The notes under the pieces were generated by a model that was given only the letters and a program-made list of their open reading frames with translations, was not told where the DNA came from and searched no databases. A stretch of DNA of 64,000 nucleotides from positions 3,062-67,061 of the forward strand of contig JAIEMM010000002.1 in the NCBI GenBank assembly GCA_019752125.1, given 5' to 3'. The position numbers and the translations under genes were made by a program. This DNA comes from Patescibacteria group bacterium. GTDB taxonomy: Bacteria; Patescibacteriota; Minisyncoccia; Phycocordibacterales; SBAW01. Positions within the stretch are counted from its first letter, which is position 1. Each line of letters starts with the position of its first letter. Shown one piece after another: positions 8,383 to 62,635 of this stretch.

Positions 8383-8844
8383 ATGATGACCAGAACACAG
8401 TGGCTTTTGATTACCACTCCTATAGCAATTATCATTATTGGGCTTCTTGTATTGGTACTTTTACCAAATAAGCCTGCGCAGCGACCTTCTAGCCCTACCT
8501 ATGCGACAATCGACAACTTAATTGCTGTAGATGCCCCATTTAAAAACGCTACTGTTTCTTCCCCACTTGTTATCTCTGGCACAGCGCGCGGCACCTGGTA
8601 TTTTGAAGCATCTGCGCCGATAGAACTTCGTGACGCAAACGGAAAAGTAATTGCACAAGGCCACATAGATGCCAATCCGCCAGCTGGCGGAGATTGGATG
8701 ACGGAAGAGTTCGTCCCATTTAAGGCCACACTTACCTTCCCCAAGCAACCAGCGGGCTCAACTGGTACTTTGGTACTCCACAACGACAACCCATCTGGCG
8801 ATCCAGAGCGCCAAAAAGAGCTCGTCGTTCCGGTAAAGTTCTAG
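8383..8844 (+). CDS. Gmad2-like immunoglobulin-fold secreted/anchored protein
   Basis: N-terminal TM/signal, then a Gmad2-type pattern (SSPLVISGTARGTWYFEA ... GGDW ... VVPVKF). Confidence 0.5.
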   Translation: MMTRTQWLLITTPIAIIIIGLLVLVLLPNKPAQRPSSPTYATIDNLIAVDAPFKNATVSSPLVISGTARGTWYFEASAPIELRDANGKVIAQGHIDANPPAGGDWMTEEFVPFKATLTFPKQPAGSTGTLVLHNDNPSGDPERQKELVVPVKF

Positions 8845-10077: not shown

Positions 10078-12981
10078 ATGGCAGTGACCCAAAAGATCAA
10101 GAAGCGCAACGGAGAGATCGTCGATTTCCATCCAGACAAAATCACCATAGCGGTGCAAAAAGCCTTCGCGGCGACGCTCGGCGACAGCCACGAAGCTGAC
10201 TCAAAAGACATCACTCGCGTTGTCGCTGAAAGTATTGATCTTCAGTACGGCAACACTGCCTTTATTCCAAGCGTCGAGGCAATCCAAGACCTTGTAGAAA
10301 CCGCACTTATGGTCCGCAACTATTTCTCAGTTGCGAAAAACTACATTATTTATCGGTACGAACACGATAAAGCGCGCCAGGAGAAGAAAGAAGAGATCGC
10401 AGAAAAGATAAATGAAAATTCTCTTCTTATCGTAAAGCGCGATGGCCGCCAAGAGCAGTTTAATGACAGCAAACTCCGCGCAACCCTTGTGCGCGCAGCC
10501 GAAGGGTATGAATCTATTCTTGACGCAGACTTAATCGTGGCAAAAGTTCGCCAGGAAATGTATGAGGGGATGAAAACAAAAGACATCCAGGACGTACTTA
10601 TTATGGTTACTCGCTCATTGATTGAACGCGATCCTGCGTATTCAAACATCGCCGCACGTCTGTTGCTCCAAACTATGTACCGAGAAGTGCTCGGCGATAT
10701 TGATTTCACCAACTTCGAAGCAGAGTACCGCGCTTCATTTGTAAAAGCGATTACTCGCGGTGTTGAAATCGGCCAGTTTGACCCCCGCATGATGGAATTT
10801 GATCTTAAGTCTTTGGCTGACGCTCTTATCCTTGAGCGCGATAATGATTTCAAGTATCTCGGTCTTCAAACTTTGCAGTCAAACTACCTTTCTAAGGAGC
10901 ACGGTAGCCGCAAACTTCTCGAGACTCCGCAGATTTTCTGGATGCGCGTTGCAATGGGCTGTGCGTTGGCAGAAAAAACTCAGGAAGAACGCAGCGCACA
11001 GGCGGTCGAATTCTACGAGATTATGTCGTCAATGTATTACACGCCATCATCTCCTACCCTCTACCACGCAGGGCTCAAACTTGCGCAACTTTCATCATGC
11101 TTCCTTTCAACTGTTCCTGACGATCTCCATTCAATCTTTAAAGAGTATTCAAACGGTGCGCAGTTGCTTAAATATGCGGGTGGCCTTGGTGTCGACTGGA
11201 CCCCTGTCCGCGCCACAGGCTCACTCGTAAAGGCAACTGGTGTTGAAAGCCAAGGCGTCATTCCATTCCTTAAGATCGCCAATGATGTCACCATTTCTAT
11301 CAACCGCTCTGGCCGCCGCCGTGGTGCTGCTGCTGTGTATCTCGAATATTGGCACGCAGATATAGAAGACTTTATAGAGCTCCGTAAGAACACCGGTGAC
11401 GAACGCCGCCGTGCTCATGACCTCAACACCGCAACATGGATTCCAGACCTCTTTATGAAGCGCCTTGCGGAAGACGGCTACTGGTCCCTCTTCTCCCCTT
11501 CAGATGTCCCTGATCTCCACGACCTCTACGGCCGCAAATTTGACGAAGCGTATATAAAATATGAGAAATTGGGCGAAGAAGGAAAACTCGGTATGTACCG
11601 CAAGATCCGCGCCGCTGACCTCTGGAAGAAGCACCTCACCATGCTCTTTGAGTCTGGCCACCCATGGGTTACCTGGAAAGACCCTTCCAACGTCCGCTCA
11701 CCTCAAGACCACGTCGGTGTTGTTCACTCCTCAAATCTCTGCACAGAAATTACGCTCAACACATCGGCAACGGAAACCGCAGTCTGCAACCTCGGCAGCA
11801 TCAACATGGCAAAATTTGTTGAAAACGGTACATTCAACCGCGAACAAGTAGCTCGAGTCATCCCAGTTGCGATGCGCATGCTCGACAATGTGATAGACGT
11901 TAACTTCTACCCTACTGAAGAAACAAAGCGTTCTAACATGCGCCACCGCCCAGTAGGTCTTGGACTCCGCGGTTTGCAAGATGCGCTCTACAAACTCAAT
12001 ATCAACTTCGACTCAGATGAAGCTGTGCGTTTCTCTGACGAGTCGATGGAAGCAATCGCGTACCATGCAATCCTCGCCTCTGCATTGCTCGCAAAAGAGC
12101 GCGGCACCTACGAAACATACAAGGGCAGCAAGTGGGACCGCGGCATTCTCCCACAAGACACGCTCGCTTTGCTTGAGCAGGAACGTGGAGTCAAGATCGA
12201 CGTACCTCGCCACGAAACACTTAATTGGCAGCTTGTGCGAGAAGCTGTTCGTACCTGGGGTATGCGCAACTCAAATACGATGGCGAACGCGCCAACAGCA
12301 TCAACTGCAAACATTGCCGGCTGCTACCCAACCATCGAACCTATCTACAAAAACCTCTACGTGAAGAGCAACATGGCAGGCGACTTTATGGTTGTAAACG
12401 AATTCCTTGTTGAAGACTTGAAGAGCGTAGGTCTGTGGAACGCTGACATGCTCGAGAAAATCAAATTCTACGACGGATCGATCCAGGACATCATGGAAAT
12501 ACCTCAAGCAATGCGCGAGAAGTATAAAGAAGCATTTGAAATTGAATCTCAGTGGCTTATCAAAGCCGCAGCCTACCGTGGCCGCTGGATAGATCAGTCA
12601 CAATCGCTCAACATCTTCTATGGCGGAACTTCAGGACGTGTACTTTCAGACATCTACCAATACGCATGGTCACTTGGCCTTAAGACTACCTACTACCTCC
12701 GCACATTGGGCGCATCTCGTGTTGAAAAGTCGACCGTTAACCTGGCAAAGTTCGGCGGCACCTCAAAACAAGATGCTGCAGGAGCAACATCTGGCGCAGT
12801 GCCGTCGGCAATGGTCGTAGAAGAAACTGTTACTACCACTACCACAGTAGAAGTCTTGTCGCAGGCCGCTCCAGTTCTATCCCCTATATCAGCTGGCATA
12901 CCTCAATTTTCAACAGAAAAGCCTGTAGTGCGTGGCAAAGTTGAAATACTAGGCGAGGTGTGCGAAAGTTGTTCGGCGTAA
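10078..12981 (+). CDS. nrdA: ribonucleotide reductase class I alpha subunit
   Basis: N-terminal ATP-cone, conserved SNLCTEI active-site segment and C-terminal Cys pair (CESCSA). Followed by nrdB. Confidence 0.85.
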   Translation: MAVTQKIKKRNGEIVDFHPDKITIAVQKAFAATLGDSHEADSKDITRVVAESIDLQYGNTAFIPSVEAIQDLVETALMVRNYFSVAKNYIIYRYEHDKARQEKKEEIAEKINENSLLIVKRDGRQEQFNDSKLRATLVRAAEGYESILDADLIVAKVRQEMYEGMKTKDIQDVLIMVTRSLIERDPAYSNIAARLLLQTMYREVLGDIDFTNFEAEYRASFVKAITRGVEIGQFDPRMMEFDLKSLADALILERDNDFKYLGLQTLQSNYLSKEHGSRKLLETPQIFWMRVAMGCALAEKTQEERSAQAVEFYEIMSSMYYTPSSPTLYHAGLKLAQLSSCFLSTVPDDLHSIFKEYSNGAQLLKYAGGLGVDWTPVRATGSLVKATGVESQGVIPFLKIANDVTISINRSGRRRGAAAVYLEYWHADIEDFIELRKNTGDERRRAHDLNTATWIPDLFMKRLAEDGYWSLFSPSDVPDLHDLYGRKFDEAYIKYEKLGEEGKLGMYRKIRAADLWKKHLTMLFESGHPWVTWKDPSNVRSPQDHVGVVHSSNLCTEITLNTSATETAVCNLGSINMAKFVENGTFNREQVARVIPVAMRMLDNVIDVNFYPTEETKRSNMRHRPVGLGLRGLQDALYKLNINFDSDEAVRFSDESMEAIAYHAILASALLAKERGTYETYKGSKWDRGILPQDTLALLEQERGVKIDVPRHETLNWQLVREAVRTWGMRNSNTMANAPTASTANIAGCYPTIEPIYKNLYVKSNMAGDFMVVNEFLVEDLKSVGLWNADMLEKIKFYDGSIQDIMEIPQAMREKYKEAFEIESQWLIKAAAYRGRWIDQSQSLNIFYGGTSGRVLSDIYQYAWSLGLKTTYYLRTLGASRVEKSTVNLAKFGGTSKQDAAGATSGAVPSAMVVEETVTTTTTVEVLSQAAPVLSPISAGIPQFSTEKPVVRGKVEILGEVCESCSA

Positions 12982-21860: not shown

Positions 21861-23633
21861 CTATTTGCGCAATTCCTGCTGGCGTTTTTTAAGCGTTGCC
21901 AGCTTCTGCATTAACATACCCTGAGCCTCAGGAAGCGCTGCGTAAAGTTCATCTCGAACTCGGGCCATTTCCTCATCTATAAGACCCCGCTCAAGAACCT
22001 CGAGCAATTCTGCCACAATAGCATTTTTGTCCTCTCCCAACGATTCAAACTCAAAACGAAACTTTTCTGCACCGTCGGCGAATGCGTGCTCGATGTGCTC
22101 TTTGCGAGAAGCTCCTAGTAATGTTTCTACACGTTGCTTAGTACTTTCGTCTGTATCATAAAATAGCAGCAACGCAGCGGTGCGCTCCAAAGAAGAAGGT
22201 TGGTTCCCTGTTTCTACTGCCGCAGGAGTATCGCCTTCGACTTCGTTTATAGACAATACCGGTCGCTTTATAACTTCTGCATGAATTGCCGCCTCAGGCA
22301 CGCGCAAACGTCCTGCAACCGTGCGAGTAAAATGCGCTTGTTCTATCTTGCTTTGAATGGCTGCGATAAGTGGAACAACCTGCGCTTCTACAAGTTTTGC
22401 GTAGGCACGTTCATCTCGTGCCTGAGGACGGAGTACGTCCAAGAAAAATTCTATCGAGGCTTTTGACGTGCGGATTGCCTGCTTTAGTGACTCTGAATCT
22501 TCTTTAGCAATATCTGCAGGATCTTTTCCATCTTTAAAATTTGGAATCTTTACATCAAAACCCATCTTGAGCGCCATCTGTGCACTCTTAAGGCCAGCAC
22601 GAATACCAGCCGCATCACCATCGAGCGCGAGTACAAGGCGTTTTGAATATCGCGAGAGAAGAGAGAGATGTTCTTCAGTAATTGCTGTACCAGAACTTGC
22701 GACAGCGAATGGAAGGCCGGACTGGTGGCTCATAATGACATCGAACTGTCCTTCTACGAGCAACACACAATCTGCCTTGCGGATAAAATTCTTTGCCTTA
22801 TCCAATCCATACAGCACGCGCGATTTTTTAAAGATCGGAGTTTCAGGACTGTTTACATATTTTGCCGGTTCAGCCCGCGGTTCCGGAGCCCGCAAAGTCC
22901 CTTCGGGACCGCGGGCCTGGGCTTTGCGGGCTTCGCCTTCCATCTCTTCAAAGAATCTGCCTGAAAACGCGATAACCTTCCCTCCCGCGTCAAACAGCGG
23001 GAACATAATGCGCCCACGAAATCGGTCATATATGCTATCGGGCGAGGTCCGACCTCCCCCATTAGTGGCGAGGTCGGACCTCGCTGGATTAACCGCAAGG
23101 CCTGCTTCAATAATTAAATCTTTGCTATATCCTTTTTTTATTAAATATTCAGAAAGGTCGCGCCAATGCGCTGGCGCATATCCTATTCTCCAACTCTCAA
23201 TAGTTTCGTCTGTGACTCCGCGCTTTTCTTTTAGATATTCCAAAACGTCTGACCTCTTTTTGAGTTCATCTTGAAAGAACGCAGTTGCATCTTCAGACAC
23301 ATCGCGCAGTTGTTCTTCTTTTTCCTTATCTTCTTGTCGTGGAACGTAGGTGTTCTTCAGCACCACACCTGCCTTTGTCGCGAGTTGCTGAAGCGCAGTT
23401 TTAAAATCTATATGTTCTATTTTTTCAACAAAGGTAAAGATGTCGCCCTTCTCGCCACATCCAAAACAAATGTAACTCCCACGCTCTGGTGAAATCATGA
23501 ATGACGGCGTTTTTTCTTTATGAAACGGACAGCGCGCACGCATATTCCTCCCCGCCCGTTCGAGTTTTACATACTCTCCCACCACATCCTGGATAGAAAG
23601 CTTGTCTTTTATCTCCTGTACCTGCGAGTCCAT
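21861..23633 (-). CDS. dnaG: DNA primase
   Basis: CHC2 zinc finger (CPFHKEKTPSFMISPERGSYICFGCGEKGD) and TOPRIM (LVEGQFDVI). Contains two in-frame palindromic insertions. dnaG-rpoD operon arrangement. Confidence 0.9.
   Translation of the reverse strand: MDSQVQEIKDKLSIQDVVGEYVKLERAGRNMRARCPFHKEKTPSFMISPERGSYICFGCGEKGDIFTFVEKIEHIDFKTALQQLATKAGVVLKNTYVPRQEDKEKEEQLRDVSEDATAFFQDELKKRSDVLEYLKEKRGVTDETIESWRIGYAPAHWRDLSEYLIKKGYSKDLIIEAGLAVNPARSDLATNGGGRTSPDSIYDRFRGRIMFPLFDAGGKVIAFSGRFFEEMEGEARKAQARGPEGTLRAPEPRAEPAKYVNSPETPIFKKSRVLYGLDKAKNFIRKADCVLLVEGQFDVIMSHQSGLPFAVASSGTAITEEHLSLLSRYSKRLVLALDGDAAGIRAGLKSAQMALKMGFDVKIPNFKDGKDPADIAKEDSESLKQAIRTSKASIEFFLDVLRPQARDERAYAKLVEAQVVPLIAAIQSKIEQAHFTRTVAGRLRVPEAAIHAEVIKRPVLSINEVEGDTPAAVETGNQPSSLERTAALLLFYDTDESTKQRVETLLGASRKEHIEHAFADGAEKFRFEFESLGEDKNAIVAELLEVLERGLIDEEMARVRDELYAALPEAQGMLMQKLATLKKRQQELRK
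22868..22935. repeat. GC-rich nested inverted-repeat element inserted in-frame in dnaG
   Basis: Arms gcccgcgg/ccgcgggc and gcccgcaaag/ctttgcgggc. Encodes a low-complexity insertion of about 25 aa (MEGEARKAQARGPEGTLRAPEPRAEPA) just before the conserved KYxNSPET primase motif. Confidence 0.6.
23042..23084. repeat. GGTCCGACC-family palindromic element (in-frame in dnaG)
   Basis: 15-nt arms gcgaggtccgacctc / gaggtcggacctcgc with a 13-nt spacer. Encodes ARSDLATNGGGRTSP within dnaG. Confidence 0.65.
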
Positions 23634-23986: not shown

Positions 23987-30880
<6,894 letters not shown>

Positions 30881-31705: not shown

Positions 31706-32422
31706 CTACGCTCGGGGCAAACCACTCTGGCGCTTGGTGCGTTGAGTATCTATATTTGCGTGATGGCCTGAAAGTAGGACCTTCGGCACGCGATATTCTT
31801 TCTTCTTGTGAGTGAATACTTCAGGGCGAGTGTAGACATCGTGGCTTGCAACACGTTCCTCTTCCAACGATTCAAACTTGCCTAAAACACCCTTAATCTG
31901 ACGTGCAGTCGAATCAATAATAGTAAGCGCTGGAACTTCCCCGCCGGTCAAAATATACGGACCGACTGAAATCTCTTCCGCTTTCAAAATCTTCTTTACG
32001 CGGGCATCAATCCCCTCGTATCTGCCGCACAAAATAATCACTTCTTTTTCTTTTGCGAGTTTCTTAGCGTATGCATTAGTAAACTCCTTCCCACCCGCCG
32101 AAGTGATAAGAATTTTTGGTCTTGCTTGTCTAGTCCCATATATGGGACTAGATTTCGATTTACCCGTTATTTTTTCTACTGCTTTGATGAACGGCCCTGC
32201 CTGCAGCACCATGCCCGGGCCGCCGCCGTACGCTTTGTCGTCTACTTTTTTATAAAACCACTCTTTTGTCCCGCGAACTCCCTTTGCAGGAGCGCTCACA
32301 AAATCACGCAGTTGGTACGCCTTAACGCTCAGAAGTTTGTTTTTCTGGGCACGCCCCAAAATAGACGCGCTTGTATACGCTTCAATAACCTCTGGGAAGA
32401 GTGTTACTACGTGAAATTTCAT
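31706..32422 (-). CDS. trmD: tRNA (guanine37-N1)-methyltransferase
   Basis: MKFHVVTLFPEVIEAY N-terminus and LCGRYEGIDARV SPOUT motif. Carries an in-frame palindromic insertion encoding SSPIYGTRQ at 32129-32152. Confidence 0.85.
   Translation of the reverse strand: MKFHVVTLFPEVIEAYTSASILGRAQKNKLLSVKAYQLRDFVSAPAKGVRGTKEWFYKKVDDKAYGGGPGMVLQAGPFIKAVEKITGKSKSSPIYGTRQARPKILITSAGGKEFTNAYAKKLAKEKEVIILCGRYEGIDARVKKILKAEEISVGPYILTGGEVPALTIIDSTARQIKGVLGKFESLEEERVASHDVYTRPEVFTHKKKEYRVPKVLLSGHHANIDTQRTKRQSGLPRA
32129..32152. repeat. AGTCCCATATATGGGACT-family perfect palindrome (in-frame in trmD)
   Basis: tctagtcccata|tatgggactaga, 24 nt. The same core occurs at 38893-38918 and 39378-39397. Confidence 0.7.
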
Positions 32423-32509
32423 AATTCGCACAATACCATAGTTTTATTGCATTCATAGGCTCGAATGCTATAGTGCGCGCAGTAGCACATCAACTGGAAA
32501 GGACATCGA

Positions 32510-36623: not shown

Positions 36624-38825
36624 TTATTTTGCTACTGCGAGAGCTTCTTCAAATTTGACGGAGAGAAGTTTAGAAACTCCGTCAGAGCCCATAGTGATGC
36701 CATAGAGAACGCCAGCGCGGGACATAGTTTCTCGGTTGTGGGTGATCAAAATAAGCTGAGATTTTTCTGCCAAGCTCTCGATCATGTCGCCATAGCGGCG
36801 TGAGTTTGCTTCGTCGAGCGCAGCTTCTGTTTCATCAAGAATAAGGAATGGCGGCGGGTTTACCTGCGACATTGCAAAGATAAGTGCGATAGATGTAAGC
36901 GCGCGTTCACCACCTGAAAGCATGTGGAGGCCTTTGATGCGCTTGTGTGGAAGCGAAATACTAATTTCAACCCCAGCTTCAACCTCTTCTTGTTCCTCAT
37001 CTTCTTCATTACCTGAAGTTTCTCTCACCAACTGGAGCGCCGCAGTACCACCCCCAAACATAAGTTTGAAGAAACGGTCGAATTCCGTATTTATTTTATT
37101 CACACCTTCTTCAAAACGCACCTGCAGAGTTTGTGTAAGTTCAACAATCAACTGATTCAACGACTCTGTTGAAGCCTCTAAATCCATAAGTTCACGTGCC
37201 AAAAACGCATCTCGGTCTGAAGTTTCCTGGTGCTCTTTGAGCACCTCTGAAGAATTGCCCGCGCCAAGCTCTTCGAGTCGGATTTTCATTCGCTCTAGTT
37301 TTCGTCTACGTTCTTCCTGAACCATGCGTGGTTCATCAGCTACAGCCGCATCCGACAAAAACTCTCCCGCTTCATCACGCAGTACATGTTCTGCGTATGC
37401 ACCAACTTCACGCCCGAGCAACATGGCAGCGTCACCCACCTCACGTTTAAATTGCTCTGTATCACGGCCAAGAATTTCTTCACGGGCGCGTAAGCGAGCC
37501 AGGGTTGTTTCCAATTCACTTCGGCGTGCCATCGCAGAAAAGAGTTCGCGCTCAGCTTCACGATTTGCATCTTTTTCATTCTCAATTTTTGAACGCAGTT
37601 CTTTTACCGCCACCTCAATACGCTCTTGTTCTGCGCGCAACACACTGAGCTCGTGTTCAAGCTGTTGCTTGCGATTCTTAAGATCTTCAAGCGAAAGCCC
37701 TGGCGCCTCTTCTTTGTGTTGAATACGGTTTAAAAATTCTTTTGCAAATGAAACAAGAGCCAAGAGACGCTGCTTGACCTGCTCGCCATCAAGAGAAAGT
37801 AAGTCCCCGAGCCCGCGCTCTATATGCTCTGCAAATTCACGTACCTGTATGCCTGGCACAGAATCCTGCACCGTCTTTGCGATACGCTCATGGGCCTGCA
37901 TCTCACCCTCAAGACGCCCAATGTCACGCACCAAAGACGCTTCATGGGCTGCAACTTTACGTCCCGCACTTTCAAGTTCCATCAATTCGGACGCACCGCT
38001 GTCTCCTTGCTTCTTTGCGACTTCGCTACGGAGATGTGAGATTAGGGTTTCAAGTTTTGTGTATTCTGCTACCGGTGGTTCTTTTTCTTCTGCAAGCATT
38101 CCGCCCGCAACGGTTAGGTATACATGTTCACGTTTAAAATATTCGAGATATTGCTCTACCGTATCGTGACGTAGTTTTTCTGACTGTTCGATCTTCTTTA
38201 CCTGATTCTGTAAAAAGCGTAAGTGTGGCGCAAGTTCACGACGTAGACTTTCTACCTCTCGCATGTTTTCCGCAGTCTTTTCTAACTTTTTCTCTGCCTC
38301 TTCTTTTTTATACAAATACGCAGTAAGACCGAGTGCGTCTTCAAGCATCTCGCGACGTTCACGCGACGTTGATGAAAGAATGCGGTCTGCTTCGCCCTGC
38401 GAAATAATATGGTGGCCGGACGCGCCAATATTTGCCTGGCTCAAAAGTTCTGAAATGTCACGCAGACGTACCTGGCTGCCGTTAAGCAAATAGTCGTTGC
38501 CGCCATCGCGATGCACAACACGCTCAAGTGTTACTTCATCAAAATCTACATTGAGCGCTCTGTCTGTGTTATCAAACGTGAGTTTAACCGATGCACGACC
38601 GCCACGAGGTACCGCGGCCGAGCCGTTCCAAATCATGTCTTCGCCGCGCTTGCCACGCATAGACTTCATCGACTGCTCGCCGAGCACAAAACGGAAGGAT
38701 TCTGCAATATTACTTTTGCCTGAACCATTAGGACCGACAATAGCCGTAATCGCAGAGGCAAATTGCAACTCCGTTTTTCGTGCAAACGACTTAAACCCCG
38801 CCAGTTCTATCGACTTCAACCGCAT
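36624..38825 (-). CDS. smc: SMC-family chromosome segregation ATPase (short, 733 aa)
   Basis: N-terminal Walker A head FKSFA...VGPNGSGKSNI...FVLGEQS, C-terminal signature LSGGERALTSIAL and Walker B LILDETEAALD. The coiled-coil middle is much shorter than canonical SMC. Confidence 0.75.
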   Translation of the reverse strand: MRLKSIELAGFKSFARKTELQFASAITAIVGPNGSGKSNIAESFRFVLGEQSMKSMRGKRGEDMIWNGSAAVPRGGRASVKLTFDNTDRALNVDFDEVTLERVVHRDGGNDYLLNGSQVRLRDISELLSQANIGASGHHIISQGEADRILSSTSRERREMLEDALGLTAYLYKKEEAEKKLEKTAENMREVESLRRELAPHLRFLQNQVKKIEQSEKLRHDTVEQYLEYFKREHVYLTVAGGMLAEEKEPPVAEYTKLETLISHLRSEVAKKQGDSGASELMELESAGRKVAAHEASLVRDIGRLEGEMQAHERIAKTVQDSVPGIQVREFAEHIERGLGDLLSLDGEQVKQRLLALVSFAKEFLNRIQHKEEAPGLSLEDLKNRKQQLEHELSVLRAEQERIEVAVKELRSKIENEKDANREAERELFSAMARRSELETTLARLRAREEILGRDTEQFKREVGDAAMLLGREVGAYAEHVLRDEAGEFLSDAAVADEPRMVQEERRRKLERMKIRLEELGAGNSSEVLKEHQETSDRDAFLARELMDLEASTESLNQLIVELTQTLQVRFEEGVNKINTEFDRFFKLMFGGGTAALQLVRETSGNEEDEEQEEVEAGVEISISLPHKRIKGLHMLSGGERALTSIALIFAMSQVNPPPFLILDETEAALDEANSRRYGDMIESLAEKSQLILITHNRETMSRAGVLYGITMGSDGVSKLLSVKFEEALAVAK

Positions 38826-38892: not shown

Positions 38893-38918
38893 AAACAGTC
38901 CCATATATGGGACTGTTT
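38893..38918. repeat. AGTCCCATATATGGGACT-family perfect palindrome (26 nt) abutting the stop codon of the TrpR-like gene
   Basis: aaacagtcccatat|atgggactgttt. Lies between the smc start and the TrpR-like gene end. Confidence 0.7.
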
Positions 38919-39376
38919 TATTTCTTCGGTTTACGTTTAGTTGGTGGATATATTGGCAACGACTCACCTTTCGGAGCTGGAAGAAATAAGTAATACAAAG
39001 GATATTTTTTCTTCAATCTATATGCCAAACTCGTTGCATATAAACGCTTTTGTGTTCTCTTTTTTAACTCCTTTTCAATTCCAGTAATTACGTGCTCATA
39101 GCCAAATATCTGGTCGTCGAGCCATCTTTGAACTCGACTTACAGTTGTTTTCCCGACACGCATTCGTCTTTGAATTGCATCGTATGATTCTCCAGCAAGA
39201 AGAAGCCGAGCGATAATAATGCGTCTTCCAAGCATAATTCGTTCGCTCTGAGTTAAAAGTTCTTTTAGAAAGAGTTTTGTCACTTCCCTTCCTTTCAACA
39301 CACTCGTAGCCGTATACAATGTATCGAGTGTGACTATGATTTCCTGTTTTGTAAGATCGTCAATTTTTCGTTTCAT
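38918..39376 (-). CDS. TrpR-like YerC/YecD family DNA-binding protein
   Basis: KELLTQSERIMLGRRIIIARLLLAGESYDAIQRRMRVGKTTVSRVQRWL matches the Trp-repressor-like HTH (YerC/YecD). Basic C-terminal tail. The gene is bracketed by the same palindrome on both sides. Confidence 0.6.
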   Translation of the reverse strand: MKRKIDDLTKQEIIVTLDTLYTATSVLKGREVTKLFLKELLTQSERIMLGRRIIIARLLLAGESYDAIQRRMRVGKTTVSRVQRWLDDQIFGYEHVITGIEKELKKRTQKRLYATSLAYRLKKKYPLYYLFLPAPKGESLPIYPPTKRKPKK

Positions 39377-39377
39377 A

Positions 39378-39397
39378 CAGTCCCATATATGGGACTG
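39378..39397. repeat. AGTCCCATATATGGGACT-family perfect palindrome (20 nt) ending 1 nt before the TrpR-like gene start codon
   Basis: cagtcccata|tatgggactg immediately 5' of ATG (39376). Candidate autoregulatory operator or mobile palindromic element. Confidence 0.65.
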
Positions 39398-39523
39398 ATT
39401 GTACGCAGAAGGTGATGTGGGAGTTTTAAAGTAGTTGTAAGTTATTTCTGAACTAACAGATTACATTTACAGCAAAAGAAAAGGGCCGCAGTCTTGGCGT
39501 GTACTGCGGACCTAACGGGGATT

Positions 39524-39805
39524 CTACCCCTTCCACCCAAGCTGGGTCAGATTCCTGATCAAAGTGCCAGTAGGGGCGCACCGAACTTCAGGGCCGAAGA
39601 ACTCGAATGTACCGCCAGGGCGCTCGTCCGTATAGAGGACCTTGAACCGTCCGTCTTTCTGAACGAGCTCGATGGCAATCCAGCTGCCGCGCACATCCCA
39701 CTTCACATAGTAGCGATTGCCTTGGAACGGGCCCGTCCGGAAGCAACGCCCCGGCTCGATTTCATCGAAACTTTTAGTTTCCGGCTTCTTTACAGCCACT
39801 GCCAT
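39524..39805 (-). CDS. 93-aa GC-rich ORFan protein
   Basis: About 60% GC. SD aaaaggag 8 nt upstream of the ATG. Minus-strand terminator hairpin ggccgcagt...actgcggcc plus T-run at about 39478-39520. Confidence 0.4.
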   Translation of the reverse strand: MAVAVKKPETKSFDEIEPGRCFRTGPFQGNRYYVKWDVRGSWIAIELVQKDGRFKVLYTDERPGGTFEFFGPEVRCAPTGTLIRNLTQLGWKG

Positions 39806-39844
39806 GACAGTCTCCTTTTTGTGCTCGTCGAGATTACCGTACCA

Positions 39845-40537
39845 TTACCAACCCTTAGCGTCGAGGGCGGCGCGAGCTGCAGCTTGTTCCGCATCTTGTT
39901 TAGAACGGCCTTCGCCTTGAGCCAGCATTGCACTGCTTGCGTATACCCCAACAAGGAAGTGTTTATCGTGGTCTGGGCCAGTCTCTTTTATGACAGAGTA
40001 GTGTGGTGTCATTCCTTCATGCTCCTGCACTTTTTCTTGAAGCGTTGATTTTGCATCCTGCCATAGACGGTCTTTGATGATTATGTCCATCTTTGGGAAT
40101 ACGTGGTCGGTGATGAATTTTTTCGCTGCATCATACCCAAGGTCCAAATAAATGGCACCGACAACCGCCTCGAATGCATTTGCCAACAATATTTGTCGTG
40201 CACGACCAGTATCTTTTGCCTCTCCTTTTGAAAGCAAGAGATAGTCGTTCATCCCAATAGAGGCGGCAATATCTGAAAGCGTCACAGCATTTACCAGTGC
40301 CGCGCGATATGCAGTGAGGTCACCTTCGTGTTTGTCCGGATATGTCGTATAGAGAAAATGCGTTGACACAAGTTCAAGCACGGCGTCGCCTAAAAACTCG
40401 AGACGCTCATTGTGCCCCAAGTCATACCCTCGGTGTTCGTTTAAATACGAACGATGTGTAAAAGCCTGCCGGAGCAGATTTGCGTCATTAAATGTAAAAC
40501 CTATCTTTTCTTCGAATGACTGAAAGTCTTTGTCCAT
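39845..40537 (-). CDS. rnc: ribonuclease III
   Basis: RNase III signature ERLEFLGDAVLEL and C-terminal dsRBD. Confidence 0.85.
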   Translation of the reverse strand: MDKDFQSFEEKIGFTFNDANLLRQAFTHRSYLNEHRGYDLGHNERLEFLGDAVLELVSTHFLYTTYPDKHEGDLTAYRAALVNAVTLSDIAASIGMNDYLLLSKGEAKDTGRARQILLANAFEAVVGAIYLDLGYDAAKKFITDHVFPKMDIIIKDRLWQDAKSTLQEKVQEHEGMTPHYSVIKETGPDHDKHFLVGVYASSAMLAQGEGRSKQDAEQAAARAALDAKGW

Positions 40538-40546
40538 GTGTCTGTC

Positions 40547-41461
40547 TTATTTTTTTACTTGGTTTTGGATGGCTTGCAGCGCCTTCGTTATGAGGGGCAA
40601 CATATCATCATAAAAGTTCAGCTCGAGCGCATCCTGCATACGGAACCATCGAGCGTCGTCGAGGCCGCCAGTCTGTTTGAGCGATATCTCTCCGTACGGT
40701 GCTTCTGCAAGAAAGTATGTAACATGCTTGCGCTTCTTACCAGTCTTTGGGTCTGAGGCAACGTATTCGTTCTCGCCCACTTTTTCAATAAGCTTGATAT
40801 CAAGCCCCATCTCTTCTTTTATTTCGCGAATGGTTCCCTCTTCAACAGTTTCGTTGGCAAACTCGGGCTTATCGCCTATTTTGCCCTTAGAGAGAGTCCA
40901 GTGGCCAAATATATCGTGCACAAGCGCAAGATATATATCTCCTTGGTGTCGTCCAAATACGATAGCGCCACCTAGATGCTGAACGGGTAGTTCTGCATAC
41001 GGCACATCTTTTTTCTTTTTTGAAACTTCATCCTTACCCGGCTCGCCCAACTCTTTATAAACGGCACCGAGCACACCGTTGACAAACCTGCCGCTGTTTT
41101 CACCACCGAAGTTCTTTGCAAGTTCAATTGCTTCGTTGATAGCGACTTTTGCTGGCACCTTTTCACGGTCAGCAAATAAAAGTTCGTATAGACCTAGACG
41201 GAGTACGTTTCTGTCTACAAGTGCTATACGGTCGAGCGGCCATTCAGGGGCAGCTTTTTCAATCACTAAATCTAAATCGGCGCGGCGGTCTATAACACCC
41301 TGAAACAACTCCTCCATAAATGGAAGGTCGCCGGCGCCTGATGCAAATTCGCCTGCGTTTCTTTCAAGTGCCCCATCAAGAGCCTCTTTATTAGAATCAC
41401 GGAAATCCCATTCAAAGAGAGTTTGGAGGACGACTGATCGTGATAGATGTCTATTTGCCAT
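40547..41461 (-). CDS. nusB: NusB antitermination factor fused to a C-terminal Nudix hydrolase domain
   Basis: The N-terminal ~140 aa are NusB-like (MANRHLSRSVVLQTLFEWDF ...). The C-terminal ~150 aa carry a Nudix box GKIGDKPEFANETVEEGTIREIKEEMGL (Gx5Ex7REUxEExGU). Confidence 0.7.
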   Translation of the reverse strand: MANRHLSRSVVLQTLFEWDFRDSNKEALDGALERNAGEFASGAGDLPFMEELFQGVIDRRADLDLVIEKAAPEWPLDRIALVDRNVLRLGLYELLFADREKVPAKVAINEAIELAKNFGGENSGRFVNGVLGAVYKELGEPGKDEVSKKKKDVPYAELPVQHLGGAIVFGRHQGDIYLALVHDIFGHWTLSKGKIGDKPEFANETVEEGTIREIKEEMGLDIKLIEKVGENEYVASDPKTGKKRKHVTYFLAEAPYGEISLKQTGGLDDARWFRMQDALELNFYDDMLPLITKALQAIQNQVKK

Positions 41462-41536
41462 ATGTCTTCGCCAGCTGGCGAAAAAGAACTAACAAACCCG
41501 AACCGCCCAGAGATAGAACCAAGAGCCAGCCTAGAA

Positions 41537-56147: not shown

Positions 56148-58025
56148 TTATCGGATTTCGAAGCCTTTTGCTTTTAGTGCCGAGTACACCTTTTCCATGG
56201 CAGTATTTGCTTCAGAATCTTCAAGGGTTTTGTCGAATGACTGGAAAATCAAGCGGAATGCGAGTGAAGTTTTGTCAGCTTTTTGGAAGCGGTCGAAGAG
56301 ACGAACGCTTTGAAGCATTCCGCCAGCTGGCGGATCCCCTGCTTCTTCCTCAATCATTTCTACGACCGCATTTTCATCAGTCCCCTCTGGAATCCAAAAG
56401 GCTACATCGCGAATAATGTACGGATATTTAGAAAATGGTTTGTATTGCTGTGCCCCAGAGATTGGGTAGCTTTCGTACTGACCAGGCACAGCCTCTGGCG
56501 CGTGCATCTCAAGCGGCTCTTCAACAGCCGGTTCTTTTTCTGTGACGATTCCGACCATCATTGCCTCCTTTCCGTCTTTCCAGACTGTTCCGATCTCAAA
56601 CAATTTTATTTCTTTGAGTCCAAGCAAATCTTTATTAGGGATATTTTTCTTAAGTGCATCGTTCAATCCCGAAATAAGGCTGGTGCGAAGATATGGTTTT
56701 ACTCCATCAACTTTGTTAAGTACTGTTCGCTCGCCTGTTTCCGCAAAGACACTGGTAAAGACTTCGGAGTAGCCCCCTGCCATCAATTCCTCACGCACTT
56801 TTTCTGCCACATAGAAGCCAACATTAACTTCCGGCTGTTTTGAAAATGGCGGAAGTTCTACTGGCAGGACTTTGTCGTAGCCAATGATGCGGCCAACTTC
56901 TTCAACAAGATCTTCTGCGATTACGAGGTCCAGGCGTTCAAATGGAGGTTGTACTTCAAATACTCCATCTTGTTCTTTATACGGGAGGCCCAAACGTTGA
57001 AATACATCGGCGATATCTGCACCGGTGAGAGATGTGCCAAGAATTTTATTTACTTGTTCGACCGTTACTGAAACGTATGTTTTCTGCTGAGGCGCTGGAT
57101 ACACATCAACCACTGAGACTACCTCCCCACCCATATTCATATCCGGACGCTGCATCAATTCGATCATTCCATTAATGCCGTGCATGCAAAGCTCCGGAGA
57201 AATAACCTGCTCAAAGCGCGACGACGCGTCGGTGCGCAGCTTGAGAGCTGCTGCGGTTTTGCGTGTTGTAACACCATCAAAGTTTGCTGACTCAACAATG
57301 ATATCTACGGTGTCCGTAGAAATACCTGACGGCATGCCACCTTTTACTCCAGCCAGACCTATAACCTCATTTGAGTCAGTAATAACAAGCATTGATTCTT
57401 TTAGATCATATTCTTTGCCATCAAGCGCAAGCATTTTTTCACCATTTTTCGCAGCACGAACCTCGATGGCGTAGCAAGGTCCGACCTTGCCGTCGCCTGA
57501 CAAGGTCGGACCTTGCCCAAGCTTCCTTGCATCGAAGGCATGAAGTGGCTGGCCGGTGTTAAACATGACAAAGTTTGTTGCATCTACAACGTTGTTGATA
57601 GAGCGCTGTCCTATTGCTTCCAGTCTTTCTTGCAGCCATTTTGGTGAAGGTCCGACCTTCACACCCTTAATGTGTGCAGCAATATAGCGTTTGCAGAGTG
57701 GCGTATTTAGAGCGACGGAAACAGTTGCTTCTCGAACGTCCCCTTGCTGGCCTGCAGCGAGAGAAGCAACTGTTTCCGAAGCGACAAAGGGATCGTGAGC
57801 GAAAGGTGTTTTTAAAATAGCTGAAAGCTCTTTTGCAATACCACGATGCGACAAACAATCGTGCCCACGGTTTGCTGTGATTTTTACATCAAGCACCTCA
57901 TCCCCACCTACTGTATCTACGCCATCTATTTCAAACGCATGAAATGTCAAAGCATCGGAAAGAGCTTCTGCCTTTGGCAGAGGAGCATCAAAGAATTTAT
58001 CGAGCCAGAGTTTTGAGACTTTCAT
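56148..58025 (-). CDS. pheT: phenylalanyl-tRNA synthetase beta subunit (short; lacks the N-terminal tRNA-binding domain)
   Basis: B3/B4 and B5 regions (ITANRGHDCLSHRGIAKEL, FDARKLGQGP). Contains two in-frame GGTCCGACC-family elements, at 57474-57516 and 57644-57662. Confidence 0.85.
   Translation of the reverse strand: MKVSKLWLDKFFDAPLPKAEALSDALTFHAFEIDGVDTVGGDEVLDVKITANRGHDCLSHRGIAKELSAILKTPFAHDPFVASETVASLAAGQQGDVREATVSVALNTPLCKRYIAAHIKGVKVGPSPKWLQERLEAIGQRSINNVVDATNFVMFNTGQPLHAFDARKLGQGPTLSGDGKVGPCYAIEVRAAKNGEKMLALDGKEYDLKESMLVITDSNEVIGLAGVKGGMPSGISTDTVDIIVESANFDGVTTRKTAAALKLRTDASSRFEQVISPELCMHGINGMIELMQRPDMNMGGEVVSVVDVYPAPQQKTYVSVTVEQVNKILGTSLTGADIADVFQRLGLPYKEQDGVFEVQPPFERLDLVIAEDLVEEVGRIIGYDKVLPVELPPFSKQPEVNVGFYVAEKVREELMAGGYSEVFTSVFAETGERTVLNKVDGVKPYLRTSLISGLNDALKKNIPNKDLLGLKEIKLFEIGTVWKDGKEAMMVGIVTEKEPAVEEPLEMHAPEAVPGQYESYPISGAQQYKPFSKYPYIIRDVAFWIPEGTDENAVVEMIEEEAGDPPAGGMLQSVRLFDRFQKADKTSLAFRLIFQSFDKTLEDSEANTAMEKVYSALKAKGFEIR
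57474..57516. repeat. GGTCCGACC-family palindromic element (in-frame in pheT)
   Basis: gcaaggtccgaccttg-(11 nt)-caaggtcggaccttgc. Encodes LGQGPTLSGDGKVGP. A smaller related palindrome, gtgaaggtccgaccttcac, lies at 57644-57662. Confidence 0.65.
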
Positions 58026-62586: not shown

Positions 62587-62635
62587 TGACCAAGGTCCGA
62601 CCTTGCCATCCTCTGGCAAGGTCGGACCTTGGTCA
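62587..62635. repeat. GGTCCGACC-family element: perfect 22-bp-stem hairpin in the prfA-rpsB intergenic region
   Basis: tgaccaaggtccgaccttgcca-tcctc-tggcaaggtcggaccttggtca. Overlaps the prfA stop codon by 3 nt. Confidence 0.7.

Follow-up and report, generated by a model that had tools for sequence, protein, structure and literature searches.

To our knowledge, the transcription factors of the candidate phyla radiation (CPR, Patescibacteria) are almost unstudied. Elsewhere, structures of TrpR on its operator are available (1TRO and 1TRR), and repressors with auxiliary or intragenic operators and DNA looping are well known from lac (O1/O2/O3), gal (OE/OI) and lambda (OL-OR around cI); lac O2 lies in lacZ and gal OI in galE, lac O3 lies at the end of the repressor gene, and an extra oligomerisation helix of LacI allows looping. 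Palindromes also form repeat families: RAYTs are homologues of HUH Y1 transposases and their repetitive extragenic palindromes (REPs) number tens to hundreds, mostly outside genes, and the Rickettsia palindromic elements (RPEs), selfish DNA of about 100-150 bp present in many copies, sit in frame in protein genes and are not known to have a DNA-binding gene of their own. Among TrpR-like proteins, where TrpR and HisR are amino-acid-responsive repressors, YerC of B. subtilis was identified as HisR, a histidine repressor whose operators are 20-bp palindromes (cacTTTAnnnnnnTAAAgtg, with the layout ACT-N12-AGT); such a site lies upstream of about half of hisR genes, suggesting autoregulation, and the E. 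eligens protein of structure 3G1C is treated as HisR (PMC9413887). In this report, we describe a TrpR-family gene in a 64,000-nucleotide stretch of the genome of a Patescibacteria group bacterium (assembly GCA_019752125.1, contig JAIEMM010000002.1, positions 3,062 to 67,061; hereafter the window). The gene encodes a 152-aa helix-turn-helix (HTH) regulator, is enclosed by two perfect palindromes, and has a third copy of the same palindrome lying in frame inside trmD. We propose that the palindrome is very probably the regulator's own binding site; the larger statement, that it serves autorepression and that the second and third sites are functional as well, appears likely to us from the comparison of sequences, with less assurance than the first.

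The 18-mer AGTCCCATATATGGGACT has exactly three exact copies in the window (32132-32149, 38897-38914 and 39379-39396). A search allowing up to three mismatches returned the same three and added none, and 100 dinucleotide-preserving shuffles of the window contained no copy, giving a chance expectation of none. The original prediction had placed one palindrome 1 nt before the start codon of the regulator, and the sequence agrees, the single base 39377 separating it from the ATG (39376-39374). It had also placed a recurrence 1 nt after the stop codon; the recurrence is there, whereas the distance has to be corrected, because the last base of the stop codon (38920-38918) already belongs to the 26-nt palindrome, and the 20-nt core lies 2 nt past the codon. 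The third copy does lie in frame in trmD, as had been claimed, and reads SSPIYGTR there.

This layout recurs across the relatives of the regulator. Of the 82 loci compared, 80 came from metagenomes and were retrieved with a profile built from 32 homologues; the other two are the window and the reference-genome locus L003. An ATATAT-centred perfect palindrome stands on at least one side of the regulator in 72 of the 82 loci and on both sides in 58, and most of the remaining loci have palindrome copies with one or two mismatches or a variant centre. In homologous loci the centre of the upstream palindrome ends 8-66 nt (mostly 11-18) ahead of the ATG and the downstream palindrome begins 0-48 nt (usually 0-25) past the stop codon, with a centre-to-centre spacing of 448-574 bp (about 480 bp in the window). 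We also looked for the 18-mer in 185,579 reference genomes, where chance alone should give about nine sites; there were 16 sites at 15 loci, and six of these sites were in CPR genomes, with one or two exact copies each. At L003, a homologue with 63% identity, again located between rnc and smc, has one copy 32 nt ahead of its ATG and another 12 nt past its stop codon, distances unlike those of the window, and that whole reference genome contains no further exact copy; at L011 (Candidatus Adlerbacteria), a regulator with 75% identity is bracketed again, its upstream copy having one mismatch. Support for the operator reading also comes from L065, where two TrpR-like paralogues on opposite strands are each flanked by their own palindrome type, the first by ATTATGATATATCATAAT and the second by GGGGTATGATATATCATACCCC (453-476 and 984-1005).

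The arms of the palindromes differ between lineages, and they do so together with the protein. We distinguished 19 lineage-specific types of six-nucleotide arm, of which ACTATG is the commonest and AGTCCC, AGTTCC, ACTTTC, ACTACG, ACTACC and GGATTG are further examples; in 41 of 47 non-redundant loci the upstream and downstream arms have the same sequence, compared with 9% of between-locus pairs. Mutual information was then scanned in 58 non-redundant proteins over the first 139 protein positions, with no prior choice of residue, and the values with arm bases -5 and -1 were highest at residues 76 and 77. All 17 proteins with lysine or arginine at residue 76 are paired with G at arm position -5, compared with 1 of the 41 that have another residue there (Fisher p = 9e-14), and all 30 with Asp77 are paired with G at -1, compared with 3 of the remaining 28. 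Through the HisR alignment these residues correspond to Ile79 and Ala80 of TrpR, both of which contact DNA (PMC9413887). We masked the HTH segment and built a neighbour-joining tree, which is noisy because the protein is short; on it, the Lys/Arg76 state changed at least eight times and G(-5) at least nine, and the association stayed near-perfect. Pairing of Lys or Arg with guanine, and of Asp with the cytosine opposite G(-1), is chemically sensible, and regulator and palindrome have most likely diversified together across Paceibacteria. Taken together, the recurring layout, the covariation of the arms with the recognition helix and the HisR-like architecture argue that the palindrome is most likely the operator of the protein, so that the operator alternative offered by the original prediction gains strong backing from the family-wide comparison.

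The protein itself is a member of the TrpR family, matching Pfam Trp_repressor (PF01371) over residues 17-96 with E=2.3e-11 and 44 bits, well clear of the 27-bit cut-off; its score with the YerC/YecD profile (TIGR02531), 33.2 bits, falls below the NCBI curated cut-off of 42.2 bits. By sequence profile, the nearest solved structures are 3FRW (1e-10), 3KOR and 3G1C, of the YerC/HisR branch, with TrpR proper farther away. An AlphaFold2 model (predicted local distance difference test score, pLDDT, 79.7) is made up entirely of helices, at 10-26, 30-36, 43-60, 65-72, 76-88, 93-115 and 117-124; helices 65-72 and 76-88 form the HTH, with the pattern x-x-T-I/V-x-R-V in the recognition helix, and the long helix 93-115 and short helix 117-124 form a C-terminal extension that is kept throughout the regulator family. 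The top Foldseek matches of the model in the PDB were 3FRW, 2OZ9, 3KOR and 1TRO, with weak E-values (at least 0.085), as expected because a monomer model was compared with an intertwined dimer. Scans with Pfam and NCBIfam found only TrpR and HTH models in the regulator and no nuclease, recombinase or HUH domain, and an all-helical fold lacking an enzymatic domain is what would be expected of a pure DNA binder. Homologues form 531 clusters, every named one of which is annotated as Patescibacteria, Parcubacteria or Paceibacterota; a look-up of the window's own regulator sequence as an exact protein match returned no record.

In the mechanism that we propose, a dimer of the regulator would read both arms of the palindrome (A-G/C-T-N3, ATATAT, N3-A-C/G-T) through the N-terminus of the recognition helix (residues 76-81). 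The upstream operator would lie against or across the core promoter and the start of the mRNA, allowing the regulator to repress its own synthesis, and autorepression is probably what the upstream copy mediates. A candidate -10 hexamer (Table 1) adjoins the palindrome, which itself runs almost to the ATG, so that bound protein would cover the transcript start. The same TACAAT hexamer also precedes the smc ATG in the window and in relatives, and a consensus promoter scan of the region did not report the copy at 39398-39403. In relatives with a far palindrome, an extended -10-like element (TGnTAnnnT) lies between palindrome and ATG, and in those with a palindrome near the ATG, the palindrome overlaps the likely -10 region, as judged from predicted promoters; in most loci no more than about 25 nt separate the upstream site from a -10-like element or from the ATG, which we count in favour of an operator. 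Shine-Dalgarno sequences are not evident at the regulator starts in homologous loci. The downstream operator would most plausibly cooperate with the upstream one, either by DNA looping, for which the family-specific C-terminal helices would serve, or by forming a roadblock where the gene ends, and the copy in the TrmD loop would be one more place for the protein to bind, in the rpsP-KH-trmD cluster that is located upstream of rpoBC and co-directional with it. We also considered the downstream copy as an operator of smc and rejected this, since smc may be as near as about 40 nt or as far as about 840 nt, while in most loci the copy lies 0-25 nt from the regulator stop codon.

Table 1. Positions in the window of the regulator gene, the three palindromes, the candidate promoter element and trmD
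Feature	Position	Strand	Remarks
TrpR-family (YerC/HisR-like) HTH gene	38918..39376	-	152 aa, C-terminal helical extension; Pfam PF01371
Upstream palindrome, putative operator	39378..39397	no strand	perfect, 20 nt, CAGTCCCATATATGGGACTG; 1 nt before ATG
Downstream palindrome, putative operator	38893..38918	no strand	perfect, 26 nt, AAACAGTCCCATATATGGGACTGTTT; overlaps last base of stop codon
Third palindrome copy	32129..32152	no strand	perfect, 24 nt, TCTAGTCCCATATATGGGACTAGA; in frame in TrmD surface loop
Candidate -10 hexamer TACAAT	39398..39403	-	directly upstream of the 20-nt palindrome; predicted from sequence (plus strand attgta)
trmD	open reading frame 31706..32431; likely ATG start 32422 (31706..32422)	-	Pfam tRNA_m1G_MT, E=2e-33; exact 238-aa match P0121

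The palindromes might instead act at the RNA level, as terminator hairpins or RNase III processing sites that insulate or trim the regulator mRNA, with the link to the protein incidental. Perfect palindromes of 18-42 nt would indeed make stable hairpins, some downstream copies have A-run/T-run flanks (e.g. L025, L036, L069, L078 and L081), the scan calls the downstream copy of the window terminator-like on the plus strand, and rnc is a neighbour gene in this clade. However, the genes lie on the opposite strand to that call, and a T-run is missing at most downstream copies in relatives; an intrinsic terminator was rejected on these two grounds, the T-run of the window following the hairpin only in the antisense direction. 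In many loci, moreover, a -10-like element downstream of the upstream palindrome implies that the palindrome would not be transcribed, and hairpins give no reason for the covariation of the arms with residues 76 and 77. Rfam at gathering thresholds found only a tRNA in the whole window, and therefore no known RNA family lies over the palindromes or the 447-nt spacer between rnc and the regulator. We regard an RNA-level role as very improbable.

The copy in trmD deserves separate consideration. Compared with the 85%-identical TrmD of L096, the TrmD of the window is longer by an insertion of 11 residues (33 nt), within which the palindrome lies, and the loop from GGGPGM to CGRYEG in which the insertion sits ranges from 49 to 81 aa among 120 close homologues. 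A palindrome-compatible hexapeptide of the form xxIYxx occurs in this loop in 32 of the 120 homologues, compared with about two expected by chance (as estimated on whole proteins); examples are SPIYGT, SSIYGT, TMIYHS, TTIYRS, GLIYQS and DLIYQV, and P0122 and P0239 each have two different ATATAT-type hexapeptides in one loop. The DNA sites in trmD of L102 (AGTTCCATATATGGAACT), L103 (GTGGATTGATATATCAATCCAC) and L104 (AGTGACTTGATATATCAAGTCACT) belong to types that flank regulators elsewhere, that of L103 being the same sequence as the downstream site of L066, and on both contigs where it could be checked, the trmD site has the same type as the regulator flanks (AGTCCC in the window, AGTTCC in L106). 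In about 600 kb of related loci, ATATAT-centred sites outside trmD and the regulator's own flanks amount to one, plus a few of unclear status. This one, L104:18743-18768 (GACTGCCTTGATATATCAAGGCAGTC), is a perfect ATATAT-centred palindrome, the sole remote intergenic site of this type in the 20-kb loci; it is located after rpoBC, and a 30-nt palindrome of another kind comes directly after it. The reading frame through the trmD sites is always ATA-TAT, even with other frames open.

A serious alternative is that the trmD copy is a neutral insertion in a permissive, lysine-rich surface loop, the flanking copies still being real operators; to this we give a little less than even weight. The variable length of the loop fits such an insertion, and so does the absence of any ATATAT-type site from the trmD of the close relatives L096 and L105. 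In other homologues the loop has ARSDLA, ARSNLA or SRRRLA, which we read as a translated palindrome of the unrelated type GCAAGGTCGGACCTTGC; peptides of this type occur in TrmD homologues of other Paceibacteria (P0145, P0173, P0175, P0191, P0209, P0219 and others), which makes the loop a permissive place too. In the window, pheT and dnaG likewise contain in-frame palindromes of other families. On the other side stand the excess of xxIYxx loops over the chance expectation, the near confinement of remote sites to trmD, the match of their types to those of the regulator and the constant frame. Recurrence, type match, trmD specificity and fixed frame incline us to read the trmD copy as a binding site under selection within the rpsP-KH-trmD cluster, as far as sequence comparison can indicate.

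The two other palindrome families that lie in frame in conserved genes of the window are found in pheT (56148..58025, minus strand; palindromes at 56319-56334, 57474-57516 and 57648-57658), in dnaG (21861..23633, minus strand; 23037-23089) and in an open reading frame (ORF) with a Gmad2 domain (8383..8844, plus strand; 8676-8691). One family, TCCGCCAGCTGGCGGA, encodes DPPAGG or NPPAGG, and hairpin pairs built on AAGGTCSGACCTT encode GQGPTLSGDGKVGPC, KVGPS and NPARSDLATNGGGRTSPD. Intergenic copies of these two families are at 2358-2373, 41467-41482 and 62587-62635; the last is a perfect hairpin with 22-nt arms (TGACCAAGGTCCGACCTTGCCA/TGGCAAGGTCGGACCTTGGTCA) and REPIN-like in look, and TTCGCCAGCTGGCGAA lies 5 nt upstream of the start of the nusB-NUDIX gene. 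At L103:455-1096, a Y1_Tnp gene (IS200/RAYT-type, PF01797) lies between dnaE and rnhB in a locus whose rnc-smc interval has no regulator cassette, and its product is a candidate mobiliser of the REP-like GGTCSGACC palindromes. Two gene fusions in the window are common to L096 and L102-L106: rpoB and rpoC form one 2297-aa ORF (23987-30880, minus strand), and NusB is fused to a NUDIX domain (40547-41461, minus strand).

The remaining alternative concerns mobility. In the window the regulator lies between smc (36624..38825, minus strand) and rnc (39845..40537, minus strand), and the gene with its two palindromes could be a relocating cassette, in which the palindromes serve as recombination or excision-integration sites, the HTH protein is a recognition or accessory factor, a host recombinase or repair enzyme acts, and solo copies such as that in trmD are dispersed derivatives, as in REPIN-RAYT systems or dif-flanked modules. 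In the window, L003, L096, L105 and L106 the cassette separates rnc from smc, and on the same conserved 20-kb backbone in L102-L104 the rnc-smc gap is 10-236 nt with no regulator in it. Gene neighbourhoods show no conservation across the 80 loci (the 233 neighbouring ORFs form 138 clusters, the largest with n=9), and the spacers beside the cassette hold unrelated ORFs in different genomes. L024 and L064 have the same asymmetric one-mismatch site on both flanks (ACTTTCATATATGGAAGT twice in L024, ACTTCCATATATGGTAGT twice in L064), an identity that suggests copying and not independent selection; L092 has the hybrid site of L064 upstream and a perfect ACTTCC site downstream. These sites of L024, L064 and L092 could be intermediates in a switch of specificity, or one flank could have been copied from the other. 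The trmD copy as a 33-nt insertion, sites that are either perfect or absent and in many cases extended to 24-42 nt, and the in-frame presence of other palindrome families in essential genes of the same genome would also fit such a cassette.

Against relocation, the all-helical regulator brings no enzyme of its own, and target-site duplication or flank homology beyond the core did not exceed permuted controls in the 47 non-redundant loci. Copy number is very low, with three copies in 64 kb and, in the L003 reference genome, exact copies at the two flanks alone; no relative of the regulator was found in 2.9 million viral contigs, where AGTCCCATATATGGGACT had two matches, judged consistent with chance. 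The regulator is 52-75% identical among the fetched metagenome loci; where divergence is larger, its conservation is similar to that of the housekeeping genes beside it. A 0.5-kb cassette integrated in trmD would be lethal, and the solo sites are thus not simple excision scars. We consider a relocating cassette unlikely, and assign no better than the same doubtful standing to its non-catalytic form, a hitherto unrecognised self-perpetuating unit comparable to REPIN-RAYT, in which an HTH protein might preserve its palindromes, keep them uniform and sometimes duplicate them, with the unit moving between chromosomal sites and fresh copies landing in frame in the TrmD loop. A classical transposon was rejected for want of target-site duplication, flank homology or a relative in viral contigs, and a dif/Xer-like site seems improbable, the arms having none of the conserved ATAA/TTAT inner bases and covarying with the HTH protein and not with a recombinase. 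Bracketing by palindromes is ancestral to the family and not a capture event; together with the low copy number, the missing target-site duplication and the missing catalytic domain, this leaves the idea in the original prediction of a regulator captured between mobile palindromes without support as it was put. The accompanying suggestion was to examine synteny from smc to the regulator for signs that the gene with its flanks is an insertion. A weaker kind of mobility does apply: genomes that share the backbone differ in whether they have the unit, and the trmD copy is an insertion relative to a close orthologue.

The rnc-smc spacers have features of their own. They carry ORFs of 65-215 aa, none related between genomes, and the region looks like a hypervariable insertion spot; the intervals are 39398-39844 in the window, L097:9622-9870, L105:9379-9750 and 10614-11261, and L106:9553-9891 and 10531-10728. 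The spacer ORF of the window (39524..39805, minus strand, 93 aa) has no Pfam match. A toxin-antitoxin or other two-gene cassette was rejected, the small spacer ORFs of the window, L097, L105 and L106 being mutually unrelated.

Copies of the 18-mer also occur in metagenome-assembled genomes (MAGs) of Actinomycetota/Acidimicrobiia (L002:4259, L012:24, L015:24, L006:4920 and L007:3411). They are preceded by a second palindrome (CCTCGAGAWTTCTCGAGG CGGTT), and two contigs of one MAG start 23 nt ahead of the 18-mer, as at the edge of a repeated element. A tblastn search with the window protein found no relative in the fetched non-CPR loci (Actinomycetota, Chloroflexota and others), and the ORFs beside the non-CPR 18-mer sites gave no obvious lead.

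Several of the observations above weigh against reading the palindromes as operators: the presence and absence of the cassette on one conserved backbone, its unconserved neighbours, the matching asymmetric flanks of L024 and L064, the 33-nt insertion that distinguishes the TrmD of the window from that of L096, the translated palindromes of an unrelated type in the same loop, and the in-frame palindromes of pheT and dnaG. To these we add that all the support is comparative and that the covariation statistics are only partly corrected for phylogeny. Palindromy reaches at least 24 nt in 32 of 98 flanking sites (12 of 49 upstream, 20 of 49 downstream) with a maximum of 42 nt, and 24-42 nt is longer than a dimer should contact, the outer arms being site-specific. 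Helical phasing of the flanking pair at 10.5 bp is marginal (Rayleigh p of about 0.04, uncorrected), the 64 kb contain no degenerate sites with up to three mismatches, and it would be unusual for a repressor to have a regulon that consists of its own gene and a site within trmD.

A full-text literature search returned no description of the regulator family, its flanking operators or the trmD site. What emerges is a phylum-wide regulator family with a predicted operator for each member, and at least 19 operator types paired with changes at residues 76/77 would offer a ready-made, testable recognition code for the TrpR fold. The operator-gene-operator layout, with a recurring TrmD-loop site that tracks regulator specificity, would be unusual in bacterial regulation, and it raises a testable question: whether the trmD-rpoBC region is controlled from within a gene, or palindromes disperse here in a new way that keeps their copy number low.

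Compared with repeat systems, the locus resembles REPIN-RAYT in having a single-copy gene flanked by cognate, lineage-specific palindromes that covary with the gene, with extra copies elsewhere; in contrast to RAYTs, the regulator is a non-catalytic HTH protein without an HUH domain, and the copies number about three. As with RPEs, a palindrome has been inserted without loss of frame into a surface loop of a protein that is essential and conserved, and a close orthologue lacks it; the insert in the window, however, measures only 33 nt and carries the putative operator of a specific regulator. Like lac, gal and lambda, it has two or three predicted operators a few hundred bp apart, one of them in a coding region or at a gene end; here, however, the predicted operators enclose the coding sequence of the regulator itself, and looping is proposed, with marginal phasing. 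HisR remains close in many respects. Both share the Pfam family, the recognition-helix pattern and a lineage-specific operator consensus, the CPR palindromes have the same 20-bp ACT/AGT-N12-AGT/ACT layout, and the CPR type CACTTTCATATATGAAAGTG is nearly identical to the HisR motif. Nevertheless, members of the regulator family have 135-160 aa and an extra C-terminal helix pair, whereas HisR and TrpR have about 100 aa, and the sites are at the regulator's own gene and trmD and not at his or trp genes; in the 64 kb no site lies upstream of a histidine biosynthesis or transport gene. The regulator family further differs from HisR in a second predicted operator right after the stop codon in nearly every member, an invariant ATATAT centre, at least 19 arm types that covary with residues 76/77, and one predicted operator in frame in trmD.

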